64,000 bases of DNA from contig CACIED010000003.1 of the NCBI GenBank assembly GCA_902585605.1, positions 14,881-78,880 of the forward strand. The letters run 5' to 3'. The notes under the pieces are model-generated. The model was given only the letters and a program-made list of their open reading frames with translations, made no database searches and was not told the origin of the DNA. Of this stretch, positions 25 to 13,943 are shown piece by piece (the stretch's first letter is position 1; each line of letters starts with the position of its first letter). This DNA comes from an uncultured Alphaproteobacteria bacterium (GTDB taxonomy: Bacteria; Pseudomonadota; Alphaproteobacteria; HIMB59; GCA-002718135). A program made the position numbers and the translations under genes.

Positions 25-1014
25 ATGAAAAATATAGCATTTATTGGAACCTCTCATATTCATACACCAAATTTTATTTCTAAGGTACTTTCAAACATTA
101 AAATTAATTGTATTGGTGTTTGGGACAAAGACAAGAATAGGTCAAAAAGTGACTCTGAAAAACTAAAATGTAAAAATTATGATAACTATATTGATTTATT
201 GAAAGAACCTAATTTAGATGGTGTTATTGTATGTTCAGAAACTAATTTGCACTATGAATTAGTTAAAAAAATTACTGAGAATAAAAAACACTGTTTTATA
301 GAAAAACCTTTGGGGATAGGAAAAAAAGATTCCTTTGAAATGGCAAATTTAATTGAGTCATCAAAAATTATTTTCCAAACAGGCTATTTCATGAGAAGTA
401 ATCCTGTTTACATAAAGCTTAAAGAATTAATTACTGCCAATTATTTTGGTGATGTTTCAAGAATTCGACTGGTTAATTGTCACGATGGTATTATGAGGGA
501 TATTTTCAAAAACTATCAGTGGATGACAGATCTCAAAGCTGCAGGCGTTGGGGCTTTTGGTGATTTAGGAACACATGTTTTAGATCTTCTCTTGTGGTTT
601 TTTTCTGATGTTGAGTCAGTAAGTGCAACCTTCACAAAAGTATATAATCAATATCCAGGTTGTGAAGAGAGTGGAGAAGCATTAATAAAATTTAAAAGTG
701 GGTTGATAGCTAGTATTGCTGCGGGATGGATAGATGTAGCGCAGCCATACACTATTTTTGTAAGTGGCACAAAAGCTCACGCAAGAACAACGAATGAGCA
801 ATTAATTATAAACGAAAATAAGGAAGGTAAAAAAATAGAAAGAATAGAAGAAAATTTACCAGAAACATTACCACATGCATTTGATTTGTTTCTCAATTCA
901 TTAATTGATAACAATACTAAAAACCTAGTTACTCCTAAAGAAGCAGCATTGAGAAGTAGTATAATGGCATCAATTTACCAATCAGAAAAAGAAAAAAAAT
1001 GGATAAATATCTAA
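25..1014 (+). CDS. Gfo/Idh/MocA family oxidoreductase
   Basis: N-terminal Rossmann-like segment, EKP motif, GAFGDLGTH (DxxxH) catalytic motif. Confidence 0.85.
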   Translation: MKNIAFIGTSHIHTPNFISKVLSNIKINCIGVWDKDKNRSKSDSEKLKCKNYDNYIDLLKEPNLDGVIVCSETNLHYELVKKITENKKHCFIEKPLGIGKKDSFEMANLIESSKIIFQTGYFMRSNPVYIKLKELITANYFGDVSRIRLVNCHDGIMRDIFKNYQWMTDLKAAGVGAFGDLGTHVLDLLLWFFSDVESVSATFTKVYNQYPGCEESGEALIKFKSGLIASIAAGWIDVAQPYTIFVSGTKAHARTTNEQLIINENKEGKKIERIEENLPETLPHAFDLFLNSLIDNNTKNLVTPKEAALRSSIMASIYQSEKEKKWINI

Positions 1015-1030
1015 ATTAAAAAATATAAAT

Positions 1031-2089
1031 ATGAGTAAAATAAAAGTTGGTATTATTGGCGTTGGGGGTATTGCGAAGTTACATGTACCTGGTTGGCGCA
1101 TGTCAGAACATGCAGAATTAATAGCAGGTTCCGATATAAATAATTCTATTCTTGAAGATTGGGGCAATATAAATCAAATAAAAAAATTATATCTTGATCC
1201 CCTAGATATGATTAATGATCCAGATATAGATGTGATAGATATTTGTGCACCTAATAACTATCACTGTGATTTAGCAATTAAAGCAATGCAAGCTGGCAAA
1301 GATGTTTTATGTGAAAAACCCTTAGCTCCAAATGTCTCACAAATAAAAAAAATGATTGAAGTAAGAGATCAAACGAATAAAAAATTAATGTGTGCTCAAC
1401 ACTTTAGATTCAGAAAAGATTCTCAATTAATAAAAGAAGAATCCAATTCAATTGGTTCGATATATCATGCACGTTCTTGGATGCTTAGAAGAAATTTTTT
1501 ACCAGTCTCACTTGGTTTTTTAAAAAAAGAAAATTCAGGAGGAGGGCCTTGTATTGATATAGGGGTGCACGTATTAGATTTAACTCTTTGGTTTATGAAC
1601 AATCCAGAACCACTTTCTGTGACGGGTGTGTCAAAAACAGAATTAGCAAAGCAATCAAATTCTTTTAGTTACAATGGAGAGTACGATAAGGAAGCAATGA
1701 ACGTTGAAGATTTTGCAGCTGCGTTTGTTAGGTTTAAAAATGGTGCAACCTTGATGCTTGAAGTATCATGGATGCTTCATCATAAACTACCTGAAGATAA
1801 AATAGAAGATATGCAGGTATGGTTATACGGAAGAGAAGCTGGTTTGCATTGGCCTAATTGTGAGATTATAAAAAATGATATCAATTCTCAAACTCACATA
1901 ACTAAAAAAATTGAAGGAAATTTAAAAGACACTATTGAACCTCATGCCAAAGAATGTATCGAGTTTGCAGAGTTTGTTGCAAACGATCAACCAGTTACTA
2001 TTCCTGCTGAACACTCTCTACAAGTAATGAAAATTTTAGATGGAATTTATAAAAGTCAAGAAGCAGGAAAAGAAATTATTTTAGAATAA
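1031..2089 (+). CDS. Gfo/Idh/MocA family oxidoreductase
   Basis: GIIGVGGIA, CEKP, GGGPCIDIGVH motifs. Confidence 0.9.
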   Translation: MSKIKVGIIGVGGIAKLHVPGWRMSEHAELIAGSDINNSILEDWGNINQIKKLYLDPLDMINDPDIDVIDICAPNNYHCDLAIKAMQAGKDVLCEKPLAPNVSQIKKMIEVRDQTNKKLMCAQHFRFRKDSQLIKEESNSIGSIYHARSWMLRRNFLPVSLGFLKKENSGGGPCIDIGVHVLDLTLWFMNNPEPLSVTGVSKTELAKQSNSFSYNGEYDKEAMNVEDFAAAFVRFKNGATLMLEVSWMLHHKLPEDKIEDMQVWLYGREAGLHWPNCEIIKNDINSQTHITKKIEGNLKDTIEPHAKECIEFAEFVANDQPVTIPAEHSLQVMKILDGIYKSQEAGKEIILE

Positions 2090-2102
2090 TAGATTATGGT
2101 TA

Positions 2103-3002
2103 ATGAAAAATAATTTATTTTTAGCTGTTATATTATCACTTTCAGGTTTGTTTTTATTAGATTGTATGGGGATTGCGATAAAGTTTTTACGAAACGAATA
2201 TCCAGCAGCTCAACTTTCTGTTTTTAGAAATTTATTTGGAATGATCCCATGTTTTATTGCTTTATATTTTTCACATGATTGGCATCAAAACGGTAGACAA
2301 ATAAAAATAAAGCAATGGAAGTTAGGATTATTCCGTGGAGTATTTGTAGCATTGGCTCAATTATGTCTCTATACTTCTTATGCTTACTTACCTTTTGCTT
2401 TAGTCGCTACCATGGAATACACTGGGCCCATGATGGTCACCCTTCTTGCTATTCCTTTATTAGGTGAAAAATTTGGTTGGTATAAAATGAGTGCAGTAAT
2501 TTCTGGTTTTGTAGGTATCGTTTTAATTATGCAACCTTGGTCATCAGACTTTAATTATATGTTATTACTTCCTATACTTGCTGCTTTTGGATATTCATTA
2601 GCAAGGGTAACATCCTTAAGTTTTGAAGATCATGTTCCTTCACCACTTATCAACTTGTATGGTCAAACAGGGACAATCATAGTTGCATGTATGTTAGTAG
2701 TGTTTTTTGATATGTGGGAAAATTTCAAAAGTATAAATGATTTCTTAGTAGTTTGTGTAATGGGGATTGCAGGAGGATCTGGAACTTTACTTTTAATATA
2801 TGGTGCTAGAAAAGCAGAACTTAGTAAAATTATGCCATTTGATTACATTGAAATATTTTTTGCACTTATTTTAGGTTGGATATTTTTTGCAGAATGGCCA
2901 GTTGATCAACTCTTTCCAGGTACTTTTTTTATAGTTTTAGGTGGATTAATCATTTATCTTCAACAAAGAAAAAATAATTTTCAAAGATTGAGAAAAACAT
3001 AA
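2103..3002 (+). CDS. DMT/EamA family transporter
   Basis: About 10 hydrophobic helices in two EamA repeats (LLGEK, IFFAEWP). Confidence 0.85.
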   Translation: MKNNLFLAVILSLSGLFLLDCMGIAIKFLRNEYPAAQLSVFRNLFGMIPCFIALYFSHDWHQNGRQIKIKQWKLGLFRGVFVALAQLCLYTSYAYLPFALVATMEYTGPMMVTLLAIPLLGEKFGWYKMSAVISGFVGIVLIMQPWSSDFNYMLLLPILAAFGYSLARVTSLSFEDHVPSPLINLYGQTGTIIVACMLVVFFDMWENFKSINDFLVVCVMGIAGGSGTLLLIYGARKAELSKIMPFDYIEIFFALILGWIFFAEWPVDQLFPGTFFIVLGGLIIYLQQRKNNFQRLRKT

Positions 3003-4054
3003 TGGAATACAAAATTACCAAACTCCAAAATGATAAAGGTTTAGATATTGACATAGTTAATATTATTAATTCAAACAATTATAGTTTTAGTTTTTATACA
3101 TATGGTGGTTATATGAGCGAGGTTTGTATCCCAACTTCTTCAAATGTCTCTGAAACAGAGGATGTATTATTAGGTTATGGTAATTTAGATGATTGTCTGG
3201 AAGCCCATGGATATTTTAATTCAATTATTGGAAGAGTTTGTAATAGAATAGGAAACAGTAAATTTACTCTTAATGGGGAAGAATATAATTTATATTCTAA
3301 TACCAAACCTGATCATCTACATGGTGGAGAGGTAGGTTTTAATAAAAAGATTTGGAAAATAGCTGATATTAAAAAAACAAGTGAAAGTATAAAAGTAGAG
3401 CTCACATACCAATCTAAACATTTAGAAGAAAATTATCCAGGCAATTTAAATTGTAAAACTATTTACGAGCTTAATAACAATAACGAAATTCTAATTTCCT
3501 TTAATGCTACTTCTGACCAAGATACTATTGTTAATATGACTAATCATAATTATTGGAATTTCCATGGTCATAAAGATAATTACAAAAATATTACTGAGCA
3601 TGTTGTCAGAATATTATCTAATCAAATTTGTGAAACTGATGAGGGGTCAATTCCTACTGGTAAATTATTAGATGTTGTTAATACAAAATATGATCTTAAT
3701 AATTCATTTGAAATAAATAATACTTTTTTAGAAAGCGGGGGTATCGATCACAATTATGTTCTCAAAGATCATTATATTGATAAATCTATAGCTTCCATCT
3801 ATAGTAACATTACTGGTATGGGAGTTGAATACTCGACTGATCAACCTGGAATACAATTTTATACTGGGAATATGATGAAAGACTCATACGCTGGCAAACA
3901 TAATCGAAAATATGGCTTACAATACGGTATGTGTCTAGAGACTCAAATTTTTCCTGATGCTATTAATCAACCAAATTTTCCATCAACTATTTTAAAAGAA
4001 GGTGAAAAATATAATTCAAATACAAAAATAAAATTAAGAAATGATTTTAAATAA
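3002..4054 (+). CDS. galM: Aldose 1-epimerase (mutarotase)
   Basis: GRVCNRI, HLHGG, NMTNHNYWN, QFYTGN, CLETQ motifs. Confidence 0.9.
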   Translation: MEYKITKLQNDKGLDIDIVNIINSNNYSFSFYTYGGYMSEVCIPTSSNVSETEDVLLGYGNLDDCLEAHGYFNSIIGRVCNRIGNSKFTLNGEEYNLYSNTKPDHLHGGEVGFNKKIWKIADIKKTSESIKVELTYQSKHLEENYPGNLNCKTIYELNNNNEILISFNATSDQDTIVNMTNHNYWNFHGHKDNYKNITEHVVRILSNQICETDEGSIPTGKLLDVVNTKYDLNNSFEINNTFLESGGIDHNYVLKDHYIDKSIASIYSNITGMGVEYSTDQPGIQFYTGNMMKDSYAGKHNRKYGLQYGMCLETQIFPDAINQPNFPSTILKEGEKYNSNTKIKLRNDFK

Positions 4055-4100
4055 ATTAATTTATTGTTTTATAATTTTATATCTATAGACATCTGCATAA

Positions 4101-4601
4101 ATGAAAATCAGTAAAAAAATTATTGATAACTTAAAAAAAGGTGGAGTAGATTTTTATTTAAGTGTCCCGTGTAAGTTACTAGCTAACATGATTGACATTC
4201 TTGAAAATGATAAGGATGTTTATTATTCGGCTGTACCACGAGAGGAAGAAGGTATGGGTATATGTGCCGGAGCTTACTTAGGAAATAAATTTCCATGTAT
4301 AATGATGCAGAATACAGGAATTGGGAATTCAGTTAATGCAATTGTTTCTTTATTACAATTATACCAAATGCCCGTTGTTTTCCTAATTAGTTATAGAGGC
4401 ACACCAGGTGAGCCAGTAGGAGCACAAGGTGGAATGGCTAAAATAACTGAAAATATTTTACAAACTTTAAGAATTCCAATGTTGCATTGTTCTTCTGAAA
4501 AAGATTTAGATAGAATTACAACATTTAGCAAACATGCCAAAGTTGTTGAATCACCAGTTGCTATTTTATGTGATTTTAATTTAATGAAAGATGATAAATG
4601 A
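4101..4601 (+). CDS. comD: Sulfopyruvate decarboxylase alpha subunit
   Basis: SVPC, REEEGMGICAGAYL, MQNTGIGNSVNA; ThDP Pyr domain; overlaps the beta subunit gene (ATGA). Confidence 0.85.
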   Translation: MKISKKIIDNLKKGGVDFYLSVPCKLLANMIDILENDKDVYYSAVPREEEGMGICAGAYLGNKFPCIMMQNTGIGNSVNAIVSLLQLYQMPVVFLISYRGTPGEPVGAQGGMAKITENILQTLRIPMLHCSSEKDLDRITTFSKHAKVVESPVAILCDFNLMKDDK

Positions 4602-5167
4602 ACCGTTTTGAATTGTTAAATAAGATACAAAATATTCTTAAAGATAACTTAGTAATATGTAATATAGGCCTTCCATCTCAAGAATTGTATAAAATTAATG
4701 ATCAGCCAAATTTTTTTTATATGTTGGGTAGTATGGGCTTGTCGTCTTCAATAGGCCTAGGTTTGTCATTGTCTCAAACAAAACAAGTTATTAGTATTGA
4801 TGGTGATGGATCAGTATTAATGAATATGAATACTCTAGCAACTATTGGAAATAGAGCGCCTTCAAATTATACTTTATTAATAATTGATAATGGATCATAT
4901 GGTTCAACTGGAGATCAAAGAACATTCACAGATGAAAATACCTCTTTAAAAGACATTGCACTTGGTGCTGGCTGTAAAAAAGTAATCGAATGCTCAGGGG
5001 AAGAAACTTTAAATGAATTATCAAAAGCTATTGAAGACAAAAATAATTCTTATGTAATTATTTCAAAGATTAATTCAGGCAATGTTAAAATTGATCCTAT
5101 ACCTCTCAATCCCATAACCATAAGAGATAGGTTTAGAAAATTTATTGGTATAGTTAAATATCTATAA
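4598..5167 (+). CDS. comE: Sulfopyruvate decarboxylase beta subunit
   Basis: NIGLPSQEL, FYMLGSMGL, GDGS...DNGSYGSTG ThDP-binding motif; closely resembles archaeal ComE as recalled. Confidence 0.85.
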   Translation: MNRFELLNKIQNILKDNLVICNIGLPSQELYKINDQPNFFYMLGSMGLSSSIGLGLSLSQTKQVISIDGDGSVLMNMNTLATIGNRAPSNYTLLIIDNGSYGSTGDQRTFTDENTSLKDIALGAGCKKVIECSGEETLNELSKAIEDKNNSYVIISKINSGNVKIDPIPLNPITIRDRFRKFIGIVKYL

Positions 5168-5176
5168 AAGCCTTTT

Positions 5177-6085
5177 ATGATCATTTGTGCAGGATCTATA
5201 TTTGCAGACTACATAAGCAAAATAGACAAGTTTCCAAAAAAACCAATTAAGGTTTTATCAAGTGGTATTGATAGAAGACTAGGTGGATCAGCGGCGGTAT
5301 CAGCATTTACTGCTAAAAAATTAGGATTTAACTCAAAGTTTATTGGTAAATTTGGTGATGACGATTCATCAATTTTCTTAAGAAATGAATTTAAAAAATT
5401 TTCTATAAATATTGATAAATCAATTATTATAAAAAATTGTCAATCATCTCAAAGTTTTGTAATTGAAGATACTAAAGGTGAAAGATTGCTGGCAGCTTAT
5501 AATGATCCGAAGTTACTTAAATATAAAAAATTGCCGACTTTAGAGTTTAGAAAAAAGGATATTTATTCAATAGATATGAGATGGATTAATTTAGCTACTA
5601 AAATTGCTATCAACTCTAAGGAAAAAAATATTAAATGTGTTGCTGATTTGGATAACTTTAAAAACTCTTCAAGTATTTCAAAGATCATAAAAAATGCTTC
5701 CCATCCTATATTCTCTGAAGAGGGTTTGAAAACATATAAAAAAAATAAGAATTTTGAATCAGCTCTTTTTCAAATATTTAATGAAACAAAAAAATTCGTA
5801 GCTGTTACTATGGGATCAAGAGGCGTTTATTGGGTAGAAAATAATTCATTATATCACTGTAAAGTTCCTAAAGTAAAAACCGTTGAAACAAATTGTGCAG
5901 GAGATGTTTTTCATGGTGCTTTTGCATCAGCTTTATCACAAAACAACTCAAATTCTGAAAGTATTTTATTTGCTGCTGCAACAGCAACATTAAAGTGTAT
6001 GAAAACGGGTGGAATATACTCAATACCTAAAATGAGTATAGTAAAAAAATTTATAAAAAAATTAAAAATTACAAAAATTAAATGA
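5177..6085 (+). CDS. PfkB/ribokinase-family sugar kinase (candidate sulfofructose kinase, YihV-like)
   Basis: GGSAA, VAVTMGSRG, ETNCAGDVFHGAF PfkB signature; DMRW motif; substrate inferred from context. Confidence 0.8.
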   Translation: MIICAGSIFADYISKIDKFPKKPIKVLSSGIDRRLGGSAAVSAFTAKKLGFNSKFIGKFGDDDSSIFLRNEFKKFSINIDKSIIIKNCQSSQSFVIEDTKGERLLAAYNDPKLLKYKKLPTLEFRKKDIYSIDMRWINLATKIAINSKEKNIKCVADLDNFKNSSSISKIIKNASHPIFSEEGLKTYKKNKNFESALFQIFNETKKFVAVTMGSRGVYWVENNSLYHCKVPKVKTVETNCAGDVFHGAFASALSQNNSNSESILFAAATATLKCMKTGGIYSIPKMSIVKKFIKKLKITKIK

Positions 6086-7017
6086 TAAAAATATTAATTA
6101 CAGAATTTTTAAATCAAGAGGCTTTAAAAAATTTACATCAAGATTTTAACATTACATACAGATCTGAAGCCTGGTCAGATAAAGATTATTTAGAAAAAGA
6201 AATACCTAACTTTGATGGAATTATTGTAAGAAATAAAACAAAACTAGATAAGTTTCTTTTAGAAAAAGCTCTTAAATTAAAATTTATTGGAAGACTTGGT
6301 GTTGGCCTTGATAATATAGATACTGAATATTGCAAAAATAATAATATATTCGTGCAACCTGCAACAGGTATGAATGCTGATTCTGTTGCTGAATATGTAA
6401 TTAATTCATCACTAACGCTTTTAAAAAAAACTACAATTGTAAATGTACAAACTCAAAATGGAAAATGGCCAAGGACTACAATTAATACAATGGAAATAAG
6501 TGGTAAAACATTAGGACTTATAGGATTTGGAAATATATCAAAAAAAGTTCTAAAGCTTGCTAACGCTTTTGACGTTTCAACAATTACATTTGATCCATAT
6601 GTGTCTCTAGAAGAAACAAATTCACATAATGTCAGAAAGGTATCTTTTGAAGAAATTCTTAATTTTGCAGATATCATATCTATTCATGTTCCTCTTAATA
6701 ATGAAACAAAATACATGTTTAATAATGAGTCATTTATTAAAATGAAAAAAAAACCAATAATTATTAATTCTTCAAGAGGAGGTATAATAAACGAAACAGA
6801 CTTACTTAATGCTTATTTTAATAATAATATTTCTGGTTTTGCCTTAGATGTTTTTGAAAGCGAGCCTGTTAATGAAACATTTTTATCAAAGATAACAAAC
6901 GAAATGAATTGTATTCTAACACCACATAATGCAGGAGTAACTGAAGAATCTAATGAAAGGGTTAGTAAATTTATTATAAAAAAAACAAATGAATTTCTTC
7001 AAAATTTTAAAGATTAA
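6082..7017 (+). CDS. slcC: D-2-hydroxyacid dehydrogenase, SlcC-like (S)-sulfolactate dehydrogenase
   Basis: ILITEF, GRLGVGLDNID, PATGMNADSVAEY, GKWPR, TPHNAGVTEESNER resemble SlcC; next to comDE. Confidence 0.7.
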   Translation: MIKILITEFLNQEALKNLHQDFNITYRSEAWSDKDYLEKEIPNFDGIIVRNKTKLDKFLLEKALKLKFIGRLGVGLDNIDTEYCKNNNIFVQPATGMNADSVAEYVINSSLTLLKKTTIVNVQTQNGKWPRTTINTMEISGKTLGLIGFGNISKKVLKLANAFDVSTITFDPYVSLEETNSHNVRKVSFEEILNFADIISIHVPLNNETKYMFNNESFIKMKKKPIIINSSRGGIINETDLLNAYFNNNISGFALDVFESEPVNETFLSKITNEMNCILTPHNAGVTEESNERVSKFIIKKTNEFLQNFKD

Positions 7018-8095
7018 ATTCACTCATTTTAATTACACGATTTTCTTTTATCGATAGTTCTGCTGCTTGACCTATAGCAACGGACATTAAACCATCTTCG
7101 AGTGAAACATCAGGTAGTGTATTATTTTTAATAGCATCATAAAATGCCAAATGTTCAAAATATGTTGATCCATGATGGTGTCCTGCCATTAATATTTTTT
7201 TATCAACTTCCATATCATCAGTCATTATAGTAGAACTATTCCTCATTCCCATTTTTACTTGAGAGATATTTTTACCAGAATCGTGAGATGGAACAAATGC
7301 TTCAATTTTCCCTTTGTCTCCAACAGCTACTACTTCTTCCTGGTATTCAGAATTTTCTGCAAACATACATAAATCTAATAATCCTCTAACACCACTTTGA
7401 AAATCAATTATTACGTATCCATTATCAATAATATCTGGTACTTTACCACTGTATTTTTCATCAAGATGATTCACATCTTGACTGCCGCTTGCAAAAACTT
7501 GTTTAACTTCACTTTGAGTTATAAATCTCATCAAATCAAAAAAATGACAACATTTTTCAACCATTGTACCACCAGTGTTTGAATCAAATCTATTCCAATT
7601 ATCAACTTTTTTAAGAAATGGAAAACGATGTTCACGAATAGATATCATTTTTAATTTACCTAAAGTTTTATTATGAACTCTTTCAATTAATTTTTTAACA
7701 GGTGGCATATATCTGTATTCCATACCTACCCAAATCACTTTTGAATAATCTTTTGAAATTAATTGAAATTTTTTACAATCATCAATGGTTGTGCAAAGTG
7801 GCTTTTCTATTAAAAGATGTTTATTGGTTTTCAAAATTTTTTCTAAAACTTCAATATGAGTAAAATTTGGAGTGGCAATTATATATGCATCTGCATCATC
7901 GTTATTTATTAATTCATCTAAGTCCCTATATGAGTTAAAATCATTCGTAATAAGCGATGAAGATTGGTTTAATGAACCCTCGTTAGGATCACATATTGAT
8001 GTGACTTTAGCGTTATCTAATAAATTAACATTTTTAATATGTTCCTGACCCATAGTTCCTGCGCCAATGATTCCATACTTTATATAACTACTCAT
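7007..8095 (-). CDS. Gfo/Idh/MocA-fold protein, candidate NAD+-dependent sulfoquinovosidase (GH188/SqgA-like)
   Basis: EKPLCTT, EYRYMPPV, IREHRFPFL, NWNRF, GGTMVEKCCHFFDLM, DLCMFAE, HHGSTY: pattern of the bacterial/plant subfamily containing GH188; sulfonate gene context. Confidence 0.75.
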   Translation of the reverse strand: MSSYIKYGIIGAGTMGQEHIKNVNLLDNAKVTSICDPNEGSLNQSSSLITNDFNSYRDLDELINNDDADAYIIATPNFTHIEVLEKILKTNKHLLIEKPLCTTIDDCKKFQLISKDYSKVIWVGMEYRYMPPVKKLIERVHNKTLGKLKMISIREHRFPFLKKVDNWNRFDSNTGGTMVEKCCHFFDLMRFITQSEVKQVFASGSQDVNHLDEKYSGKVPDIIDNGYVIIDFQSGVRGLLDLCMFAENSEYQEEVVAVGDKGKIEAFVPSHDSGKNISQVKMGMRNSSTIMTDDMEVDKKILMAGHHHGSTYFEHLAFYDAIKNNTLPDVSLEDGLMSVAIGQAAELSIKENRVIKMSEFNL

Positions 8096-9465
8096 ATTGT
8101 ATATGTTGGTATTTGTAATTTAGTTCCTAAATTTTGTATATCTTTAAAAATATTTCCGTAAGTAAAAGCTAAATGATGTTCCAATCCACTTAAGAATATT
8201 TTTTTTATTTTTTTATTTGTATCTTTTCCTAAACTCACTACTCCAGAAGTACCGGAGAAAGATTTTTTTCTCTTAATAATTTCCCCTCTTGCTATAAAAA
8301 ATTTTAATTTGTTTTCAGATTTTGAAACTCTGAAGATAGTTATTTTACCTGGTTTTAAAGCAAAGTCATGCAGCAAGGGTTTTCTTCGATTTGAATGTAC
8401 AGTCACATTAGCCTTATTTTTTTCTGCCATACTTATAGGTGCAAGTCCACAATGCCAGAATACTGCAGTGTTGTCTTTTATATCTAAATCAACAATATCT
8501 ACCAGAAGTGAGGGCTTATTATTTAATTGATTTAAAATATTACAACTTAAACTTCCAAGAACATCTGCTTCACATGCAGAACTTATTTTTTTTTCGTTCA
8601 TCATCGCCATTGGAGCACACGAAGCACAACCATATTCAGTAAACATTTCCGGCCAACATCTCACTGCAAAAGCATCAAACTTTTCTTTTTTTTGAATTTT
8701 TTCTAGTCCATGAAATAATGAAATACTTTTTTCAACTTCAATTTGATTAAGATTTTTTAAATCTTTGAAATTTTTTCCAATATTTTTTTTAGTATTTATA
8801 ATTTCATTTTTCTCAATTTTACTAGAAATTTTAAATAATTTTTTTAAACTAATTTTAGAAACATTTGTATGAAGTTTATTTTTTAATTCACTCACTTCAT
8901 AGTCACATGTATCAAAACCATCTGGTCTTTTACCAACTAAAGCTATTTTAGGATTTGAGTAGGTAATCTGTTTAAAATTCTTTCCAGAGTTTTCAATTTT
9001 TTTTAAATAGCTTTTATCTAAATTGTCTTTATTATTAATAAACTCAACTATTTTTTTGTTGAAGTAATTAACTTCTTTATCAAAGATAACAAAATCAGAA
9101 TAAATTTTGTTTTTTATTAATGAATGTAATCCTAAATTAACTCCACAAAGAGAATTTAGTCTTAATCTGCCCCCCGTTCTTTTTTCTTTAAAAGATATAA
9201 AAAAAATTGGTTTTTTAAAAACTTTAGTGAATTTTTTAATAAATTTTGAGTCAGTAAATGTTGACTGAATAATTAAGTATTTCTTACATTTTTTTTGCTT
9301 AAAAAAAGACAATGCTTCTTCACTAATTACATCATTTGTAATTAATTTTTCAAAAAAAATAATGTTATAACTTAATTTTTTTAATCTTTGTTCTACTAAG
9401 CCTATTTTTTCATTTGCAAAATTTACATCAAATGTTTCCCTACCAAGACTAAGACAACCAATCAT
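8092..9465 (-). CDS. L-fucose/L-arabinose isomerase-fold protein, candidate sulfoquinovose isomerase (SqvD/SftI-like)
   Basis: GGRLRLNSLCG, VRCWPE, CEAD, WHCG, FSGTSG, GLEHH motifs; 4-bp overlap with the GH188-like gene. Confidence 0.7.
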   Translation of the reverse strand: MIGCLSLGRETFDVNFANEKIGLVEQRLKKLSYNIIFFEKLITNDVISEEALSFFKQKKCKKYLIIQSTFTDSKFIKKFTKVFKKPIFFISFKEKRTGGRLRLNSLCGVNLGLHSLIKNKIYSDFVIFDKEVNYFNKKIVEFINNKDNLDKSYLKKIENSGKNFKQITYSNPKIALVGKRPDGFDTCDYEVSELKNKLHTNVSKISLKKLFKISSKIEKNEIINTKKNIGKNFKDLKNLNQIEVEKSISLFHGLEKIQKKEKFDAFAVRCWPEMFTEYGCASCAPMAMMNEKKISSACEADVLGSLSCNILNQLNNKPSLLVDIVDLDIKDNTAVFWHCGLAPISMAEKNKANVTVHSNRRKPLLHDFALKPGKITIFRVSKSENKLKFFIARGEIIKRKKSFSGTSGVVSLGKDTNKKIKKIFLSGLEHHLAFTYGNIFKDIQNLGTKLQIPTYTI

Positions 9466-9634
9466 TTAAAGCTTCCTTATACGAAAATATCTTCTTTTTT
9501 TTATGATTATAACACTACCAAGTAAAAAACAAAAAAACAGAATATTTTTCCTTTTTATAATGGCTTTTATTATCAATTTCTCTTGTATAAATATTTACTA
9601 TATGTTTATGTTTAAACATTAAATTGGAGGAATA

Positions 9635-10891
9635 ATGATAAAATTAATTCTTAAAAAACTTTCAATTACTTTTATTGCAATCTCTTTTACTGTAATTTCT
9701 TCTGTAGCTTCTGCAGAAATAACAATAACTTGGCCGTCTATTTGGGTTGGAAAAGACTCAAAGACTACAGTTATTGGTGAGCTAATAGATGAATTTAATG
9801 CAGCAAATGCAGGTTCAATAAAAGTAGTGGTTGAAGAACAAACTGACTACGACATTTATGCTCAAAAACTAACTGCTCAGATAGCGACAGGTGAATTACC
9901 TGACATAATGACAGTTGGTGCTCAGCTTTTAGATGTTTTACATAGAAGTGGGAAAGCAATGGATCTTGCTCCTCATATAAATTCAGATCCACATTGGAAT
10001 AATGTATATCCAGAAAATGCACTTCAATCTGCTATGACTGATGGAGTTCTTTCTGCATTGCCATACGAACTTTTCGTAACTCCTGTTACTTATAATAAAA
10101 AAATATTAAAGGAAGCAGGTTATGATGAGTTCCCTGACAATTATGATGATTTTTTCAAAATGTGTGAAGCAGTTACTGCTAATGGCAAAGTTTGTACATC
10201 TCAAATGACTGGTAAAAATGGTTGGACATCAATGTTATGGTATTCACAAGCATTAGCTTCTGCTGGTGGACCAGATATTTATGAAAAAGGTCTCGATCAC
10301 CCAGCCTATGTCAAAGCTTTTGAAGTTATGGAAAAAATGTATCAATACACCACTAGTGATGCCATTGGTGCAGATGCAGGTGTTTCAGGAGGTCATTTCC
10401 TAAATGAAAGAACTGCAGTATTTATGAATGGTCCTTGGTTTATTGCTCGATACACTTCTGACGGTATACCTGGTCTACATGAAAATATAGGTGTCGCTGC
10501 TGCTCCCATGTTAATGGGTGGTGAAGGTTCACCTGGAGGTTATGTAGGTGGTAGACAATCATCATTAGCTGCAGGCAAACAATCTGATCCTGCAAAAGAA
10601 GAAGCAATAGTTAAGTTTTTAAAGTGGTTAACTATTCCTGAAAATGTTGCAAGGCTATCTTATAGTTCAGGTGCGATGTTCATTGTTAATGCTGATCTAC
10701 CTAATGATATGGATAGACTGTTCATAGAAATGAAACAGGGAATAAGTGACGCTCCTTATGTTGCTCCTATCTTTCAAAATGGAATTGGCTCTTTAGCGGT
10801 AGCTAGTGAATTTCCACAAGCATTGTCTGCTTTGGCTTTAGGTGATGTTACACCTGAAGGTGCAGTAGAAATGTTACAAGACGCTGAATAA
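9635..10891 (+). CDS. Carbohydrate ABC transporter substrate-binding protein
   Basis: Signal peptide (ASA-E), GELPDI, YNK, NGPW; GGAGG RBS upstream. Confidence 0.9.
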   Translation: MIKLILKKLSITFIAISFTVISSVASAEITITWPSIWVGKDSKTTVIGELIDEFNAANAGSIKVVVEEQTDYDIYAQKLTAQIATGELPDIMTVGAQLLDVLHRSGKAMDLAPHINSDPHWNNVYPENALQSAMTDGVLSALPYELFVTPVTYNKKILKEAGYDEFPDNYDDFFKMCEAVTANGKVCTSQMTGKNGWTSMLWYSQALASAGGPDIYEKGLDHPAYVKAFEVMEKMYQYTTSDAIGADAGVSGGHFLNERTAVFMNGPWFIARYTSDGIPGLHENIGVAAAPMLMGGEGSPGGYVGGRQSSLAAGKQSDPAKEEAIVKFLKWLTIPENVARLSYSSGAMFIVNADLPNDMDRLFIEMKQGISDAPYVAPIFQNGIGSLAVASEFPQALSALALGDVTPEGAVEMLQDAE

Positions 10892-10900
10892 TAACTTAAT

Positions 10901-10930
10901 AACTATGAGGTATTTTTATACCTCATAGTT
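10901..10930 (+). terminator. Stem-loop after the SBP gene (partial terminator or mRNA stabiliser)
   Basis: Perfect 13-bp inverted repeat AACTATGAGGTAT-tttt-ATACCTCATAGTT. Confidence 0.75.
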
Positions 10931-10939
10931 TATTTACCT

Positions 10940-11812
10940 ATGAAAATAAAAAAAGATGAGGTTGGTTGGTTATTATTATTTATTGCACCTACCTTAATTC
11001 TTTTCACACTTTTTTTTATTTTACCAATTTTATTTCTTTTAGCGAGTAGCTTTACAAATTGGGATGGTATTGATGCAGAATTTGTTGGGTTTGAAAACTA
11101 CATTAAATTATTTAATAAAAAAAGCTTTGTAAGGGCAATTACAAATAACCTATATTGGTGCATCACTGCAGCACTTATTACCGTTCCGTTAGGTCTTATT
11201 ATAGCATTACTCTTATCTCATCGATCAAGGGGATGGAAAGTTTTTAGAACAGTCCTATTTGTGCCACAAGTTGTATCATCAGCAGCCATAGCGATGCTTT
11301 GGGCAGCTGTTTTTAATGCTGAATATGGACTATTAAATTATATTTTAGATAACATAGGTTTATCTGATTATAAAAACCATAATTGGTTAGGAAATGTAAG
11401 AACTGCAAATGCTGCATTAATTGGGTTTTCTTTGTGCTACGTTGGTTATTTTATGGTTATCATGTTAGCAAAAACAGCAAGCATATCAGAAGATTATTAC
11501 GACGCCGCAAAGATAGATGGAGCAAGTCAAATTCAAAAAGATTTTTATATTACAGCTCCTTTAATTAAGAGCACATTTTTTCTTTGCATCATTTTAGCTG
11601 TAATCTTTAATTTAAGACAATTTGAATATGTTTATCTTATGACTGCTGGCGGTCCAGCAAATAAAACTCAAGTACTTGTAGTTTACATTTGGAATGAGTT
11701 AACTGTTCAAAGACTTGGAAGAGGAAGTGCCGCAGGAGTTATAATGATTGCATTGGGAGCTATGTTACTTCTTTTACTTCGTAGAATATTAAAAAGTGAG
11801 ACTTATAACTAA
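10940..11812 (+). CDS. Carbohydrate ABC transporter permease (MalF-like)
   Basis: FVGFENY, EAA loop DAAKIDGA, MTAGGP. Confidence 0.9.
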   Translation: MKIKKDEVGWLLLFIAPTLILFTLFFILPILFLLASSFTNWDGIDAEFVGFENYIKLFNKKSFVRAITNNLYWCITAALITVPLGLIIALLLSHRSRGWKVFRTVLFVPQVVSSAAIAMLWAAVFNAEYGLLNYILDNIGLSDYKNHNWLGNVRTANAALIGFSLCYVGYFMVIMLAKTASISEDYYDAAKIDGASQIQKDFYITAPLIKSTFFLCIILAVIFNLRQFEYVYLMTAGGPANKTQVLVVYIWNELTVQRLGRGSAAGVIMIALGAMLLLLLRRILKSETYN

Positions 11813-11813
11813 T

Positions 11814-12650
11814 ATGACTAAGGATAATTCTTTAAATTTTTATTCTATTTTTAAGTGGGTAATAATAATTTCTTTTGTTGTATATGCAGTATTCCCATTT
11901 CTTTGGTTGGTCCTTGCTTCCTTAAAAACAAATGCAGAGTTACTTGATAATCCATTTAAGTTACCAAAAGTTTTCCAATTTCAAAACTATTCAAATGCAA
12001 TTCAAGAAGCAGGTTTAATTCAACTAATAATTAATTCTTTAGTTATTAGCACCTGCGCTACTTTTTTAAATATCCTTTTTGCTTCCATGTGTGCTTTTGC
12101 TATAGCCCGACATATTTTTTGGTGGAAAAATGTATTATTTTTAATGATAACAGCTGGTATTTTAGTTCCTTTAAATGCATTAATTATCCCATACTACGCA
12201 ATTATCAATTTTTTAAATCTTTATGACACAAGGCTTGGTCTAATATTAGTTTACTGTGCAGTTGGATTACCAGTATCTACATTTATTTTAACAGAATTTT
12301 TTAAAGGAATTCCAAAAGAAATAGAAGAAGCATCATATTTAGATGGTTGTAATTTTGTAGCTCGATATTTTAGAATTATGTTGCCATTAGCTCTTCCTGG
12401 GTTAGCTACTGCAGGAACGTTTCAGTTCATTTTATGTTGGAATGAATTTATCTACGCAATGCTTTTAACTTCTTCAACTGAAATAAGAACAATCCAGTTT
12501 GGTATAAGTTATTTTACAAATGAATTTTTCTCTGATTACGTTGGAATGTTTGCAGCAGTAGTAGTTAGTATTTTGCCAAGCATTACGGTGTTTATACTTT
12601 TCCAAGAGAGAGTGATAACTGGCTTAACAGCTGGGTCAGTTAAGGGATAG
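11814..12650 (+). CDS. Carbohydrate ABC transporter permease (MalG-like)
   Basis: IPKEIEEASYLDG, WNEF, GLTAGSVKG; ATG at 11814 preferred over GTG 11796. Confidence 0.9.
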   Translation: MTKDNSLNFYSIFKWVIIISFVVYAVFPFLWLVLASLKTNAELLDNPFKLPKVFQFQNYSNAIQEAGLIQLIINSLVISTCATFLNILFASMCAFAIARHIFWWKNVLFLMITAGILVPLNALIIPYYAIINFLNLYDTRLGLILVYCAVGLPVSTFILTEFFKGIPKEIEEASYLDGCNFVARYFRIMLPLALPGLATAGTFQFILCWNEFIYAMLLTSSTEIRTIQFGISYFTNEFFSDYVGMFAAVVVSILPSITVFILFQERVITGLTAGSVKG

Positions 12651-12657
12651 ATATTTC

Positions 12658-13932
12658 TTGAAACATCCAAATATTATAAAGATTATTTGCCACGATATTG
12701 GAAGACACTTGGGTTGTTATGGAGTAAAATCTATCAATTCAAATGCTATAGATACACTAGCCAAAAACGGTATCTTATTTAAAAACTCATTTTCAACAAG
12801 CCCTGGTTGTAGCCCAAGTAGAGCTGCGATAGCTACTGGGATGTATCCTCACAATACAGGTGTATTGGGATTAGCACATGCACATTTTGGTTGGAGTCTT
12901 GATAAAAAAATTAATCACATCGCAAAATATTTTTCAAAAAATGGTTATAACTCAATACTTTTTGGATTACAGCATGTCACCTATCATGAGAAAACACTTG
13001 GTTTTAATAAAATTTTTCCAGAGAGACCGGCTGATGAAGTGTTAAAAAATATTACAAAGATTATTGATAGTAAAATTTTCAAAAAACCTTTTTATGCTGA
13101 AGTTAATTTCTTTGAACCCCATCGTCCTTTTGATTATGGAGGTGTTAAACCAGATAAATCTAAAGGTGTGTATATTCCAAAATATATACCAAAAAATATT
13201 TATAGCCGAAGAGAGTTTGCAGAAATGCAAGGAGCAATTAAAAAAATAGATGATACAGTTTTTAAAATAATAAACCTTCTAAAGAAGAAAAATCTTTATG
13301 AAAATACTATTATAGTTTTTACAACAGATCACGGGATCCCATTCCCCAGAGCAAAAGGAACTCTATATGACTCTGGCATTGAAACTTGTCTTATAATTTC
13401 TTATCCAAAATTAAACATAAAAAATAAAAAATTTAGCGAATTAATTACTAATATTGATATTCTACCAACACTTTTAGATTTCGCAAAAATTAAAATTCCA
13501 AAAGAAATACAAGGTAAAAGTTTTTATCCACTAATATTAAATAAAAAATATTCTGAGAATAATGAAATTTTTGCAGAAAAAACTTATCATGATCTATTTG
13601 ATCCAATGCGGTGTGTTCGAAATAAAAATTTCAAATTAATTATAAATTTTGATTCTGATAGAATTGTAAGAGTGCCAGGAGATATAATGATGGGAGATAC
13701 ATATAAAACTATGCTAGGGCAAATTATTAATATTCGAGAACGCTATGAATTATATGATATAAATAGAGATAAATTTGAAATAAAAAATTTAGCTAATAGC
13801 AAAAAATATAAAAGTATTAAAAGTGAACTATTGAGAAAAATTGTAAGATGGATGAAAAAAACTAAAGATCCTTTATTGAAAAAGCAAATACAATCACCTT
13901 TTTTTCATGATACACTAAAGCAACTAAAATAG
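12658..13932 (+). CDS. Formylglycine-dependent sulfatase (N-sulfoglucosamine sulfohydrolase-like)
   Basis: CSPSR motif, HD near N-terminus, EPHRPF, TDHGIPFPRAKGTLYD, ELYD; TTG start. Confidence 0.9.
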   Translation: MKHPNIIKIICHDIGRHLGCYGVKSINSNAIDTLAKNGILFKNSFSTSPGCSPSRAAIATGMYPHNTGVLGLAHAHFGWSLDKKINHIAKYFSKNGYNSILFGLQHVTYHEKTLGFNKIFPERPADEVLKNITKIIDSKIFKKPFYAEVNFFEPHRPFDYGGVKPDKSKGVYIPKYIPKNIYSRREFAEMQGAIKKIDDTVFKIINLLKKKNLYENTIIVFTTDHGIPFPRAKGTLYDSGIETCLIISYPKLNIKNKKFSELITNIDILPTLLDFAKIKIPKEIQGKSFYPLILNKKYSENNEIFAEKTYHDLFDPMRCVRNKNFKLIINFDSDRIVRVPGDIMMGDTYKTMLGQIINIRERYELYDINRDKFEIKNLANSKKYKSIKSELLRKIVRWMKKTKDPLLKKQIQSPFFHDTLKQLK

Positions 13933-13943
13933 ATTTTTAAAGT

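Follow-up and report, generated by a model that had tools for sequence, protein, structure and literature searches.

The window analysed here is a 64,000-nucleotide stretch of contig CACIED010000003.1, from an uncultured pelagic alphaproteobacterium with an AT-rich genome of 1.46 Mb (assembly 91.7% complete). An initial annotation had described a sulfoquinovose (SQ) locus of two convergent gene sets. The listing of open reading frames bears out this layout, and all eight genes are in place:

2103..3002, + strand: EamA/DMT-family membrane transporter (PF00892, 85.6 bits)
3002..4054, + strand: aldose 1-epimerase (GalM type), proposed sulfoquinovose mutarotase (PF01263, 234 bits)
4101..4601, + strand: ComD, predicted sulfopyruvate decarboxylase alpha subunit (TIGR03845)
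4598..5167, + strand: ComE, predicted sulfopyruvate decarboxylase beta subunit (TIGR03846)
5177..6085, + strand: predicted YihV-type (PfkB family) sulfofructose kinase (best PDB match 7AG6)
6082..7017, + strand: short (311 aa) D-2-hydroxyacid dehydrogenase, proposed sulfolactate dehydrogenase (SlcC-like; PF02826/PF00389)
7007..8095, - strand: predicted GH188 SqgA-type NAD+-dependent sulfoquinovosidase (Gfo/Idh/MocA; PDB 8qc3)
8092..9465, - strand: aldose-ketose isomerase (Fucose_iso_C), proposed sulfoquinovose-sulfofructose isomerase (PF02952, 32 bits)
9466..9634, no strand: divergent AT-rich intergenic region between the isomerase and an ABC operon, read from the sequence

The genes are closely packed inside each set, abutting or overlapping by 1-4 nt, and the 3' ends of the + and - sets overlap by 11 nt (7007-7017). 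The cluster runs past 3002-9465 on both sides. The EamA gene overlaps the start of the epimerase gene and is conserved together with it. It is the first core gene, with 73-98% identity in relatives, where the epimerase always adjoins it. Its product may export sulfonate or sulfite, or take up sugar.

The protein encoded at 7007-8095 had been assigned to GH188, and matches to proteins of solved structure confirm the family. Its best PDB matches are solved SqgA structures (8qc3, E 7.8e-106; 8qc2, 1.9e-104; 8zn9, 4e-101), with a 70-order gap to the next match (3ezy, 8.7e-35). Each of the eight positions named for catalysis or sulfonate binding is conserved, these being the equivalents of ArSqgA Lys107, Tyr136, Arg166, Leu170, Lys172, Glu189, His193, and His321 (numbering from PMC10755693). 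The protein is thereby predicted to be a GH188 SqgA-type NAD-dependent sulfoquinovosidase. It shares its family, its conserved residues, and a cluster without GH31 with the described SqgA enzymes (Kaur et al. 2023, PMC10755693; RdSqgA in PMC12780224). The sulfo-SMO route, which is typical of Roseobacter, is not tied to this enzyme. It falls in a pelagic clade, has 46-47% identity (tblastn) to GH188 of roseobacter-type loci (L114, L118, and L122), and its gene adjoins the isomerase gene in 69 of 80 related loci.

The top PDB match of the kinase is the sulfofructose kinase 7AG6 (E 8.8e-44, 153 bits), followed by a runner-up at 96 bits and ribokinases at no more than 71 bits. E. coli YihV matches a single gene in the genome, this one, at 35% identity. 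The equivalents of YihV Lys27, Arg138, Asp244, Asp13, and Ser95 are kept, while Asn109 aligns to Ala. A kinase tree groups the protein with YihV in a clade of 25 rows (SH-aLRT 99) that excludes E. coli RbsK, PfkB, FruK, and PsuK. This is the grouping that the initial annotation had anticipated, and the protein is best read as a YihV-type sulfofructose kinase. The epimerase appears GalM-like rather than YihR-like: it scores 260 bits against TIGR02636 (below the cut-off of 398), its top PDB match is human aldose 1-epimerase (1snz, E 4e-59), and it has only 22% identity to E. coli YihR over 218 residues.

The isomerase is more divergent. Its sole NCBIfam match is NF048012 (SftI), at 277 bits against a 700-bit cut-off, and a PDB sequence search with it gave no match. 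An AF2 model (pLDDT 94.6) matched L-arabinose isomerases (E 5e-20) and L-fucose isomerases (1e-13) in Foldseek, and the protein is predicted from this model to have an L-arabinose/L-fucose isomerase fold. It had been called SqvD/SftI-like. That label holds insofar as SftI is its sole curated relative and the fold fits; the NCBI model rejects it as an SftI equivalog. Six further homologues, taken from SQ-type clusters of other proteobacteria, likewise reach only 250-323 bits against NF048012, so that the isomerase falls in a separate proteobacterial clade that this model does not name. SftI/SqvD of Firmicutes has the same PF02952 domain and the same position next to SQ genes, and differs in belonging to the clade that NF048012 describes.

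ComD (160.4 bits against a TIGR03845 cut-off of 147.95) and ComE (222.0 bits against a TIGR03846 cut-off of 221.5, a margin of 0.5 bit) just clear their equivalog cut-offs and are predicted to be the two decarboxylase subunits. Against the phosphonopyruvate decarboxylase model, ComD scores 99.5 bits, below the cut-off of 312.5. The dehydrogenase at 6082-7017 scores 262 bits against TIGR01327, below the cut-off of 454. Its top PDB matches are type III phosphoglycerate dehydrogenases (1wwk, E 3e-53; 2ekl), and paralogues elsewhere in the genome have 36-39% identity to it. It is of the phosphoglycerate-dehydrogenase (SERA) type, and a sulfolactate dehydrogenase role is proposed. PMC6303947, which cites the SlcC of Chromohalobacter salexigens, puts SlcC within or next to the SERA clade. 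The claimed co-location with sulfolactate oxidation and sulfopyruvate decarboxylation stands, as this dehydrogenase and ComDE lie in the same gene set.

Taken together, the locus probably codes for a sulfo-EMP-type route that breaks down SQ and is joined to a short mineralisation branch. The substrates and the order of steps are those that we infer from the gene families. SQ glycosides such as sulfoquinovosyl glycerol would be cut by the GH188 enzyme with NAD+, and the epimerase would interconvert the SQ anomers. The isomerase would convert SQ to sulfofructose, which the kinase would phosphorylate to sulfofructose-1-phosphate. The next step, an aldolase split into DHAP and sulfolactaldehyde, would need an enzyme that the locus does not encode, and so would the oxidation of sulfolactaldehyde to sulfolactate by an aldehyde dehydrogenase. 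The SlcC-like dehydrogenase would then form sulfopyruvate, and ComDE (4101-5167) sulfoacetaldehyde. Xsc and Pta are present in the genome outside the cluster and could carry the route on to acetyl-CoA and sulfite: Xsc is on contig C1 (953 bits, where the cut-off is 676), and the sole Pta match adjoins Tpa and Ald on the contig of the locus itself, 12 kb upstream. A tiny-genome marine alphaproteobacterium would in this way hold a compact cluster for plant and algal sulfoquinovose that leads its sulfur half towards sulfite, with the aldolase gene missing. Roseovarius nubinhibens degrades sulfolactate via sulfopyruvate, ComDE, and Xsc, and the proposed branch follows the same sequence from sulfolactate through sulfopyruvate and sulfoacetaldehyde to acetyl phosphate plus sulfite and acetyl-CoA. 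Here, unlike there, a sulfosugar cluster contains the genes for the dehydrogenase and ComDE, and Xsc and Pta lie elsewhere.

The initial annotation had overlooked both gaps in this route. The gene identities and the logic from GH188 through a SqvD/SftI-like isomerase to a YihV-type kinase hold up; two steps are lacking, since the locus is without a YihT-like aldolase and a sulfolactaldehyde dehydrogenase. E. coli YihT found no match in the assembled genome at E 1e-3, and the YihT-like aldolase of relatives found none there better than E 2.5; the latter occurs in only three of 35 same-genus genomes. The genome has housekeeping aldolases, among them a class II FBA on contig C9. Its only DeoC/LacD-family member, on contig C4, is a DeoC equivalog. 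The IolJ-like gene beside iolB on contig C7, which is the only short class II aldolase in the assembly, is equally close to FBP aldolases (135 bits) and SqiA (130 bits), and this iolB-adjacent gene is found in 19 of 24 sister-family genomes without the cluster. Mutants of E. coli in yihT are not known to grow on SQ, which would argue against a housekeeping aldolase substituting. The locus holds no aldehyde dehydrogenase of any kind. The best candidate for the sulfolactaldehyde step is a GabD-like gene on contig C2, with 49-52% identity to in-cluster dehydrogenases of four related loci (L097, L103, L114, and L118).

The genes co-occur in relatives, as the initial annotation had expected. The core order is the same in 10 of 10 same-genus loci and in most of 80 loci from a public genome collection, which argues that the arrangement is not chance. 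The isomerase gene is present in 22 of 35 same-genus genomes and in none of 24 sister-family genomes. Among 43 distant loci (34-39% isomerase identity), 35 have GH188 and 38 a YihV-like kinase. In MAGs of Rhizobiales and Rhodobacterales, related clusters also contain a YihT-like aldolase; some have a GabD-like dehydrogenase as well, and two have ComDE. L114 carries in one direction the kinase, aldolase, isomerase, GH188, epimerase, GabD-like dehydrogenase, D-2-hydroxyacid dehydrogenase, ComD, and ComE. Because these clusters supply the missing members, the proposed route is present whole elsewhere.

The locus might instead hold two independent modules side by side: an SQ entry (GH188, isomerase, kinase, and epimerase), and a dehydrogenase with ComDE that uses imported C3 sulfonates, namely sulfolactate or sulfopyruvate derived from cysteate or DHPS, so that SQ carbon does not enter ComDE. 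The gammaproteobacterial clusters lack ComDE, as do 41 of the 43 distant loci, and ComDE therefore seems accessory. Sulfur-compound genes are abundant nearby (Pta-Tpa-Ald, two sulfatases, and a formylglycine-generating enzyme), and the locus has no sulfolactaldehyde dehydrogenase joining the halves. However, the ComD and ComE genes stand inside one gene set, after the epimerase and before the kinase, with gaps of 10 nt and 47 nt. The D-2-hydroxyacid dehydrogenase accompanies the kinase and isomerase even without ComDE (31 of 37 pelagic and 21 of 43 distant loci), and in L097, L103, L114, and L118 the GabD-like gene directly precedes it. We regard such a division as unlikely.

It is a little harder still to see the fused pathway as decaying, with the aldolase lost, growth on SQ unsupported, and SQ at most detoxified or partly converted. 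The absence of the aldolase across the assembly does look like loss, because a sister lineage (L053-L055 and L096) has a YihT-like aldolase at the place matching 9466..9634 (L054:5306-6328), and the gammaproteobacterial clade and 36 of the 43 distant loci have one too. However, the assembly is incomplete, all eight genes are intact, and many species of the genus have clusters that lack the aldolase but whose reading frames are open. The genes are under purifying selection, with dN/dS of 0.03-0.27 between aldolase-less genomes (0.14-0.27 for kinase, isomerase, and GH188; 0.03-0.06 for ComE against near kin). Seawater RNA libraries yield contigs that agree, at 92% identity or more, with parts of the genes for GH188, the isomerase, ComD, and the binding protein of the neighbouring ABC operon; with DNA carry-over possible, they are weak evidence for the proposed SQ pathway.

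The combination had been thought undescribed, which was an overstatement because 'hybrid sulfo-EMP1/2' clusters are already published; PMC10665668 reports them in Proteobacteria and Actinobacteria, where a PF02952 isomerase of the sulfo-EMP2 and sulfo-TAL kind is combined with the YihV-type PF00294 kinase of sulfo-EMP1 and an aldolase of either class. These mosaics are repeated in a review (PMC12890257), and GH188 within sulfo-EMP clusters is also published (PMC10755693). The hybrids share with the present locus the conversion of SQ via sulfofructose to sulfofructose-1-phosphate and the PF02952 isomerase, PF00294 kinase, and PF01263 epimerase. Unlike them, the locus lacks an SFP aldolase of either class and YihU reductase or SlaB, has GH188 in place of GH31, carries the proposed sulfolactate dehydrogenase and ComDE in the same gene set, and belongs to a pelagic host with a 1.46-Mb AT-rich genome. 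The tandem sulfofucolytic-sulfolactate sulfolyase pathway of Paracoccus wurundjeri (PMC12421959) also unites sulfosugar cleavage and C3-sulfonate mineralisation in one cluster with an SlcC homologue; it is ED-type, acts on sulfofucose, and ends in ComC and SuyAB, whereas the route here would be EMP-type and end in ComDE and Xsc. In the literature searched, the cluster was not described in streamlined pelagic Alphaproteobacteria and Pseudothioglobaceae, nor was a ComDE module inside such a cluster or an aldolase-less form.

The genes on either side are more variable than the core:

25-1014 and 1031-2089, + strand: two Gfo/Idh/MocA oxidoreductase genes (Pfam PF01408/PF22725/PF02894)
9635-10891, + strand: CUT1-type sugar ABC importer binding protein (PF13416/PF01547)
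10940-11812 and 11796-12650, + strand: CUT1-type sugar ABC permeases (PF00528)
12658-13932, + strand: sulfatase (PF00884, 128 bits)
13944-14636, + strand: formylglycine-generating enzyme (FGE; PF03781, 118 bits)
14605-16434, + strand: 609-aa protein (no Pfam family)

On the left, the oxidoreductase pair (25..2089) is a variable insert between Opp-type ABC genes, which lie upstream of the window, and the cluster; it is present in four of nine relatives' loci reaching that point (L024, L025, L026, and L028) and absent in five. On the right lies the divergent sugar ABC/sulfatase/FGE operon (9635-16434). Its ABC genes are a variable flank, with other ABC systems in their place in other lineages of the genus, and its binding protein showed no likeness to a sulfoquinovosyl-glycerol binding protein (best PDB match 4g68, 68 bits). 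It is very improbable that the true substrate of the cluster is a neutral sugar or one with another modification, which is what the automated names imply (inositol dehydrogenase, fucose or arabinose isomerase, ribokinase, and galactose mutarotase), or a sulfated sugar, which the adjacent sulfatase might suggest. In favour of such a substrate, curated-family scores are below cut-off for all but ComDE, the epimerase is GalM-like, and the sulfatase/FGE operon and sugar importer abut the isomerase. Against it, the SqgA sulfonate-binding Arg/Leu/Lys and the YihV Lys/Arg are kept, the ComDE substrate is a C-sulfonate, and other lineages of the genus retain the core but carry different genes in place of the sulfatase flank. 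The sulfatase, FGE, and 609-aa protein genes, which share an operon with the ABC genes, are probably a separate sulfated-sugar module. The only atlas leads for the 609-aa protein are DUF6259 and GH123_N-like clusters (scores 0.94).

The locus between 2103 and 9465 probably encodes a catabolic route for sulfoquinovose (SQ). It lies on contig C3 of a 1.46 Mb assembly that comprises 33 contigs and is rated 91.7% complete, and the window is AT-rich, with a G+C content of 25-37% over its first 20 kb. The initial annotation had proposed a hybrid SQ route physically linked to sulfolactate oxidation and decarboxylation. The finding is real and this reading is correct in its main lines, and the ORF listing bears out the gene coordinates on which it was built. 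The genes of the locus and its surroundings are as follows.

L002 (contig C3 upstream of the window) 1517-8460: EamA, Pta, class-III aminotransferase, alanine dehydrogenase, MetE-like protein, 511-aa sulfatase
L002 8612-14886, ending at window base 6: Opp-type ABC importer with a 684-aa family-5 binding protein, two permeases and two ATPases
25-2089: two further Gfo/Idh/MocA genes, upstream of EamA
2103-3002, + strand: EamA transporter, first gene of a tightly packed set
3002-4054, + strand: aldose 1-epimerase, same set
4101-4601 and 4598-5167, + strand: two TPP-enzyme halves, ComD and ComE
5177-6085, + strand: PfkB kinase
6082-7017, + strand: 2-hydroxyacid dehydrogenase (2HADH), 311 aa
7007-8095, - strand: Gfo/Idh/MocA protein (GH188), converging on the + strand set
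8092-9465, - strand: Fucose_iso_C protein (isomerase)
9635-16434, divergent from the isomerase: ABC/sulfatase operon, in which a CUT1 sugar-binding protein and two permeases are followed by a sulfatase, a short formylglycine-generating enzyme and a protein of 609 aa

The proposed route would run from the GH188 enzyme through the epimerase, isomerase and kinase to an aldolase and an aldehyde dehydrogenase, and from there through 2HADH and ComDE to Xsc and Pta. The GH188, YihV-type and ComDE identities suggested in the initial annotation are all upheld by the comparisons below, and the SqvD-type isomerase is upheld in part.

The best PDB matches of 7007-8095 are the SqgA sulfoquinovosidases 8qc3 (357 bits, E 7.8e-106), 8qc2 (353 bits, E 1.9e-104) and 8zn9 (342 bits, E 4e-101). 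These lie far ahead of other Gfo/Idh/MocA proteins, the next structure being 3ezy with 124 bits (E 8.7e-35). The paper that defined GH188 describes Lys107, Tyr136, Glu189, His193 and His321 of ArSqgA as contacting SQ, and Arg166, Leu170 (through its backbone) and Lys172 as a sulfonate-binding triad (PMC10755693). The five catalytic positions are all identical in a HMMER alignment of 7007-8095 to 8qc3, for which an offset of 13 between ArSqgA and chain numbering was derived by counting. The sulfonate triad is also kept, in the motif R-F-P-F-L-K-K as compared with R-F-P-F-L-H-K of 8qc3. The predicted membership of 7007-8095 in GH188, as an NAD+-dependent enzyme of the SqgA type, is as well supported as sequence allows.

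The kinase scores 131 bits on PF00294. Its closest solved relative is the E. coli sulfofructose kinase YihV (7AG6, 153 bits, E 8.8e-44), followed by an uncharacterised sugar kinase (96 bits) and by ribokinases (71 bits or less). When E. coli YihV (K-12 record) was searched against the whole assembly, it matched only this kinase (35% identity, E 4e-35). YihV is reported to hold the sulfonate with a Lys27-Arg138-Asn109 (KRN) triad and to use Asp244 in catalysis (PMC8006165). Asp244 (in GXGD), the sugar-binding residues Asp13 and Ser95, and Lys27 and Arg138 are kept in the alignment to 7ag6. Asn109 aligns to Ala, and an Asn is found two residues downstream. In a quick maximum-likelihood tree of 29 rows, the kinase falls into a clade of 25 rows that includes E. 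coli YihV (SH-aLRT 99). This clade also holds the kinases of other SQ-type clusters, and E. coli RbsK, PsuK, PfkB and FruK fall outside it. Inside the YihV group the window's kinase belongs to a pelagic clade, which sits on a long branch (2.41). The placement of the genome's other PfkB protein in this tree is unreliable.

The only NCBIfam match of the isomerase is the SftI sulfoquinovose isomerase model NF048012 (E 2e-82), on which it scores 277.2 bits, below the equivalog cut-off of 700 bits. Six other proteobacterial homologues from SQ-type clusters likewise score 250-323 bits, and the proteobacterial isomerases therefore form clades that are left unnamed by this NCBI model, which is tuned to Firmicutes. 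The PF02952 domain is matched at 32.0 bits against 29.3. The search for a sequence match in the PDB returned none. An AlphaFold2 model built from 25 sequences (mean pLDDT 94.6) resembles, according to Foldseek, L-arabinose isomerases (E 5e-20, TM 0.56) and L-fucose isomerases (E 1e-13), which suggests the fold of this family. In a library of representatives at 50% identity, the protein matches its own cluster at 66% identity, after which values drop to 33-37%. Its genomic company is that of SQ genes: GH188 is found in 69 of 80 related loci and a YihV-type kinase in 67, several of these loci being short or cut off. We have filed the protein as one that would work like SqvD/SftI without being an equivalog.

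Both subunits of ComDE pass their equivalog cut-offs, ComD with 160.4 bits against 147.95 (TIGR03845) and ComE with 222.0 against 221.5 (TIGR03846), a margin of 0.5 bit. They score far lower on the model of phosphonopyruvate decarboxylase (Ppd; 99.5 and 136 bits against a cut-off of 312.5). The 2HADH is nearest to short type III phosphoglycerate dehydrogenases (1wwk, E 3e-53). The sulfolactate dehydrogenase SlcC has been placed within or beside the SERA (PGDH) clade of the 2HADH family, and sulfolactate is described as resembling 3-phosphoglycerate (PMC6303947). Other 2HADH paralogues with 36-39% identity are present in the genome, so 6082-7017 is an extra copy. Away from the locus, the genome also encodes Xsc (953 bits against a cut-off of 676), two TauE-family proteins and one sulfite-oxidase-type molybdoenzyme. 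The only Pta (PTA_PTB) match in the genome lies 12 kb upstream, beside Tpa and Ald. Because the cluster contains ComDE and the genome contains Xsc and Pta, these cells may release sulfite and not pass DHPS or sulfolactate to other bacteria. Such a release would change the cross-feeding that is expected from SQ degradation.

Of 35 species-level genomes from the same genus, all of them incomplete (55-89%), 22 gave an isomerase match, and the 24 sister-family genomes searched (81-99% complete) gave none. Synteny across relatives had been put forward as a check on the initial reading, and the order ComD-ComE-kinase-2HADH / GH188-isomerase is kept in all ten same-genus loci that were fetched, one of which ends inside ComD. 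A scan of public species-representative genomes gave 80 loci; several are short, so the gene counts that follow are lower bounds. The pelagic-clade isomerase (at least 52% identity) is present in 37 of them, accompanied by GH188 in 34, 2HADH in 31, the kinase in 29, ComDE in 22 and a YihT-like aldolase in 10. By record title, the hosts of these 37 loci are uncultured Alphaproteobacteria, Candidatus Thioglobus/Pseudothioglobus, Piscirickettsiaceae, Thiotrichales and one Dehalococcoidia MAG. The other 43 loci, from Rhizobiales, Rhodobacterales, SAR324, Desulfobacterales and others, carry a homologue of 34-39% identity. They hold a YihV-like kinase (38), a YihT-like aldolase (36), GH188 (35), 2HADH (21), GH31 (4), a GabD-like dehydrogenase (4) and ComDE (2). 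Locus L114, from a record titled uncultured Tropicimonas, contains in one direction the kinase, aldolase, isomerase, GH188, epimerase, GabD-like dehydrogenase, 2HADH, ComD and ComE. Other bacteria therefore encode, in a single cluster, the full route inferred in the initial annotation.

Two of the collected loci deserve separate mention. The contig of the Dehalococcoidia-titled MAG (L072) carries a cluster of the Pseudothioglobaceae type, and its row in the isomerase tree falls within theirs, which means either misbinning or a recent transfer. An uncultured alphaproteobacterial record (L123) combines a rhizobial-type kinase-aldolase-isomerase-2HADH set, with an isomerase 39% identical to that of the window, and a pelagic-type GH188 gene (61% identical) that lies 7 kb off on the other strand, a further mosaic.

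A dedicated sulfofructose-1-phosphate aldolase, of either the class I YihT or the class II SqiA type, was not found in the assembly, which is 91.7% complete. E. coli YihT matched nothing in it at E 1e-3, and the aldolase of relatives (L054:5306-6328) nothing better than E 2.5. The latter is a protein of 340 aa in the tagatose-1,6-diphosphate aldolase subfamily NF009498 (322 bits). In Pseudothioglobaceae-type loci and in the sister lineage, such a YihT/LacD-like class I aldolase gene is flanked by those of the binding protein and the isomerase (L054:5306-6328; also L053, L055, L096, L065, L068-L070, L072 and L074). An AT-rich spacer of 169 bp is all that the window has at the matching place. 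The cognate aldolase is present in 3 of the 35 genus genomes, and a paralogue of 28-31% identity in 4. A quick-search isomerase tree of 72 rows pairs the window's lineage with an aldolase-bearing sister lineage, and the gammaproteobacterial clade is also aldolase-bearing. Since both carry the gene, its loss is the simpler reading.

The missing aldolase poses a concrete biochemical question, namely which enzyme cleaves sulfofructose-1-phosphate. Candidate stand-ins are a class II fructose-bisphosphate aldolase (FBA, contig C9), an IolJ-like class II aldolase (C7) and a DeoC-like aldolase (C4), and none has a specific link to the cluster. The PF01791 match in the genome is DeoC, the PF01116 matches are the housekeeping FBA and an iolB-adjacent aldolase, and a PF00596 fuculose-phosphate-type class II aldolase was not found in the genome. 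The IolJ-like enzyme, which gives similar scores to FBA and SqiA structures, is only a candidate; its distribution, 24 of 35 genus and 19 of 24 sister-family genomes, is independent of the cluster. The DeoC-like gene, located beside an aldehyde dehydrogenase, occurs in 29 of 35 genus and 0 of 24 sister-family genomes. It is untied to the cluster, because it is found in all 13 genus genomes that have no isomerase match and in 16 of the 22 that have one. A second transaldolase (contig C21) was considered for a sulfo-TAL route and dropped, as it sits among heptose and nucleotide-sugar genes. Four genus genomes (G005, G008, G022 and G027), including the two nearest kin of the window, encode a module of Dak2, Dak1, a LacD-like aldolase and a YihU-like dehydrogenase (L135, G008:C12, 97-3316; same in L133, L134 and L136). 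This could be a second sulfosugar or ketose-phosphate module, whose aldehyde product would then be reduced. The module is absent from the window's assembly, flanks included.

Neither a YihU reductase nor a SlaB/GabD dehydrogenase was found in the locus. A GabD-like succinate semialdehyde dehydrogenase on contig C2 (TIGR01780, 726 bits) shares 49-52% identity with the dehydrogenases that lie inside the clusters of L097, L103, L114 and L118. Weak YihU-like matches lie on C8 and C15.

Many of these elements have been described. A 2026 review of aquatic SQ cycling covers the sulfo-EMP, EMP2, ED, TAL, TK, SMO and SDO pathways (PMC13436972). Hybrid sulfo-EMP1/2 clusters, in which PF01263/PF16161, PF07221/PF02952, PF00294/PF00365 and PF01791/PF01116 are mixed, have been reported from Proteobacteria and Actinobacteria (PMC10665668; PMC12890257), and a Vibrio hybrid was shown experimentally (PMC13372026). 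GH188 has already been published in sulfo-EMP clusters and in marine Roseobacter (PMC10755693; PMC12780224), and a tandem cluster for sulfosugar degradation plus mineralisation was published for sulfofucose (PMC12421959). Our search found no paper on SQ catabolism in SAR11-like, HIMB59/AEGEAN-169 or Thioglobus/SUP05 bacteria, and none on ComDE inside an SQ cluster; neither result is a proof of absence, and both may be overturned by supplements or subscription journals. The AEGEAN-169 paper leaves sulfo-compounds unmentioned. The initial description of the locus as an undescribed variant thus needs narrowing: its enzymes and the hybrid principle are known, and what appears to be unreported are the hosts, the ComDE-bearing architecture and the aldolase-less form.

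SQ represents one of the largest organosulfur fluxes. Its marine share is put at about 1.5 Pg C per year, and its principal marine consumers are reported to be Alteromonadaceae and Roseobacteraceae (PMC12780224). That study used identity cut-offs to the enzymes of these groups, 54% in the case of SqgA (PMC12780224). The window's GH188 gene is 46-47% identical to those of roseobacter-type loci. Given this value, the cluster in 22 of 35 genomes of a streamlined pelagic alphaproteobacterial genus and its Pseudothioglobaceae versions, there is possibly an uncounted SQ sink in oligotrophic water. We regard it as possible, and rather doubtful, that abundant plankton with streamlined genomes, namely this SAR11-like genus and the Pseudothioglobaceae (SUP05 relatives), carry a self-sufficient route from sulfolipid SQ to sulfite and acetyl-CoA, which in most species of the alphaproteobacterial genus would lack a dedicated aldolase and leave C-C cleavage to a housekeeping or moonlighting one. 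If so, an open-ocean SQ sink would have been missed by marker surveys based on Roseobacter and Alteromonas, and sulfo-EMP would have an aldolase-less genetic form.

Compared with one same-genus group, amino acid identity falls along the locus from OppF (97%) through ComDE (92-98%), the epimerase (91-95%), the kinase (78-83%) and 2HADH (70-72%) to GH188 (59-63%) and the isomerase (56-58%). Compared with locus L052, dS is 0.33-0.54 from EamA to ComE and 0.06-0.09 from the kinase to the binding protein. The graded identity (97% to 56%) and the dS step indicate that recombination swaps the isomerase-GH188 end together with the transporter flank. A sharp change in divergence spans window positions 2103-10891 in comparisons with L052 and L057. 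This flank differs between lineages: it is the ABC/sulfatase/formylglycine-generating enzyme operon, an ABC system with GH31, or an ABC system accompanied by a hydrolase gene and three Gfo genes. In the second kind, the flank past the isomerase encodes a GH31 glycosidase of 793 aa, 23-24% identical to E. coli YihQ, along with a different ABC importer (L028 1995-4376, genome G021; also L075 and L076). Some genus genomes may thus hold both a GH188 and a GH31 enzyme at the locus. The cluster is under purifying selection between aldolase-less genomes, with dN/dS against L051 and L052 of 0.19-0.22 for the kinase, 0.14-0.27 for the isomerase, 0.14-0.15 for GH188 and 0.03-0.06 for ComE. Four seawater RNA libraries, which come from three studies, contain contigs at least 92% identical to parts of the stretch, including GH188 (319 nt, 4 differences), the isomerase (217 nt, 2) and the binding protein (about 1 kb, 9-11). 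Because DNA can be present in such libraries, these matches are only a hint of expression and the covered parts are no proof of transcription; the uncovered parts are uninformative.

Upstream of the window, the contig carries the Pta-Tpa-alanine dehydrogenase genes, which are the classic taurine Tpa/Ald/Pta set, as well as a sulfatase gene and the Opp-type ABC system. Counted with these L002 genes, the SQ cluster is part of an organosulfur island that makes up the first 31 kb of contig C3. The Opp-type importer always lies directly upstream of the cluster within the genus (85-100% identity), and 6 of the 43 distant SQ-type loci (e.g., L116, L117, L127 and L089) also have Opp-type ABC genes no more than 10 kb from the isomerase. 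The Opp-type system may be the real importer of SQ or SQ-glycerol. The 9635-16434 operon has no ATPase gene of its own and looks like a module for uptake and desulfation of a sulfated sugar. Its 609-aa protein belongs to no Pfam family, and atlas leads point to DUF6259 and GH123_N-like clusters. Its binding protein (9635-10891) was considered as an SQ-glycerol binding protein and dropped, since no such PDB match was obtained. Scans for promoters and terminators predicted fewer sites here than in shuffled sequence, and Rfam gave no match within the window. The extra Gfo/Idh/MocA pair is inserted between OppF and EamA here, and likewise in four of the nine loci from relatives that extend this far; the genome encodes about 15 or more Gfo/Idh/MocA paralogues. 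A second adjacent Gfo/Idh/MocA and EamA pair, seen as tblastn paralogue matches only, lies at about 54640-56510 of the window (C3:69524-71391), with both genes on the - strand.
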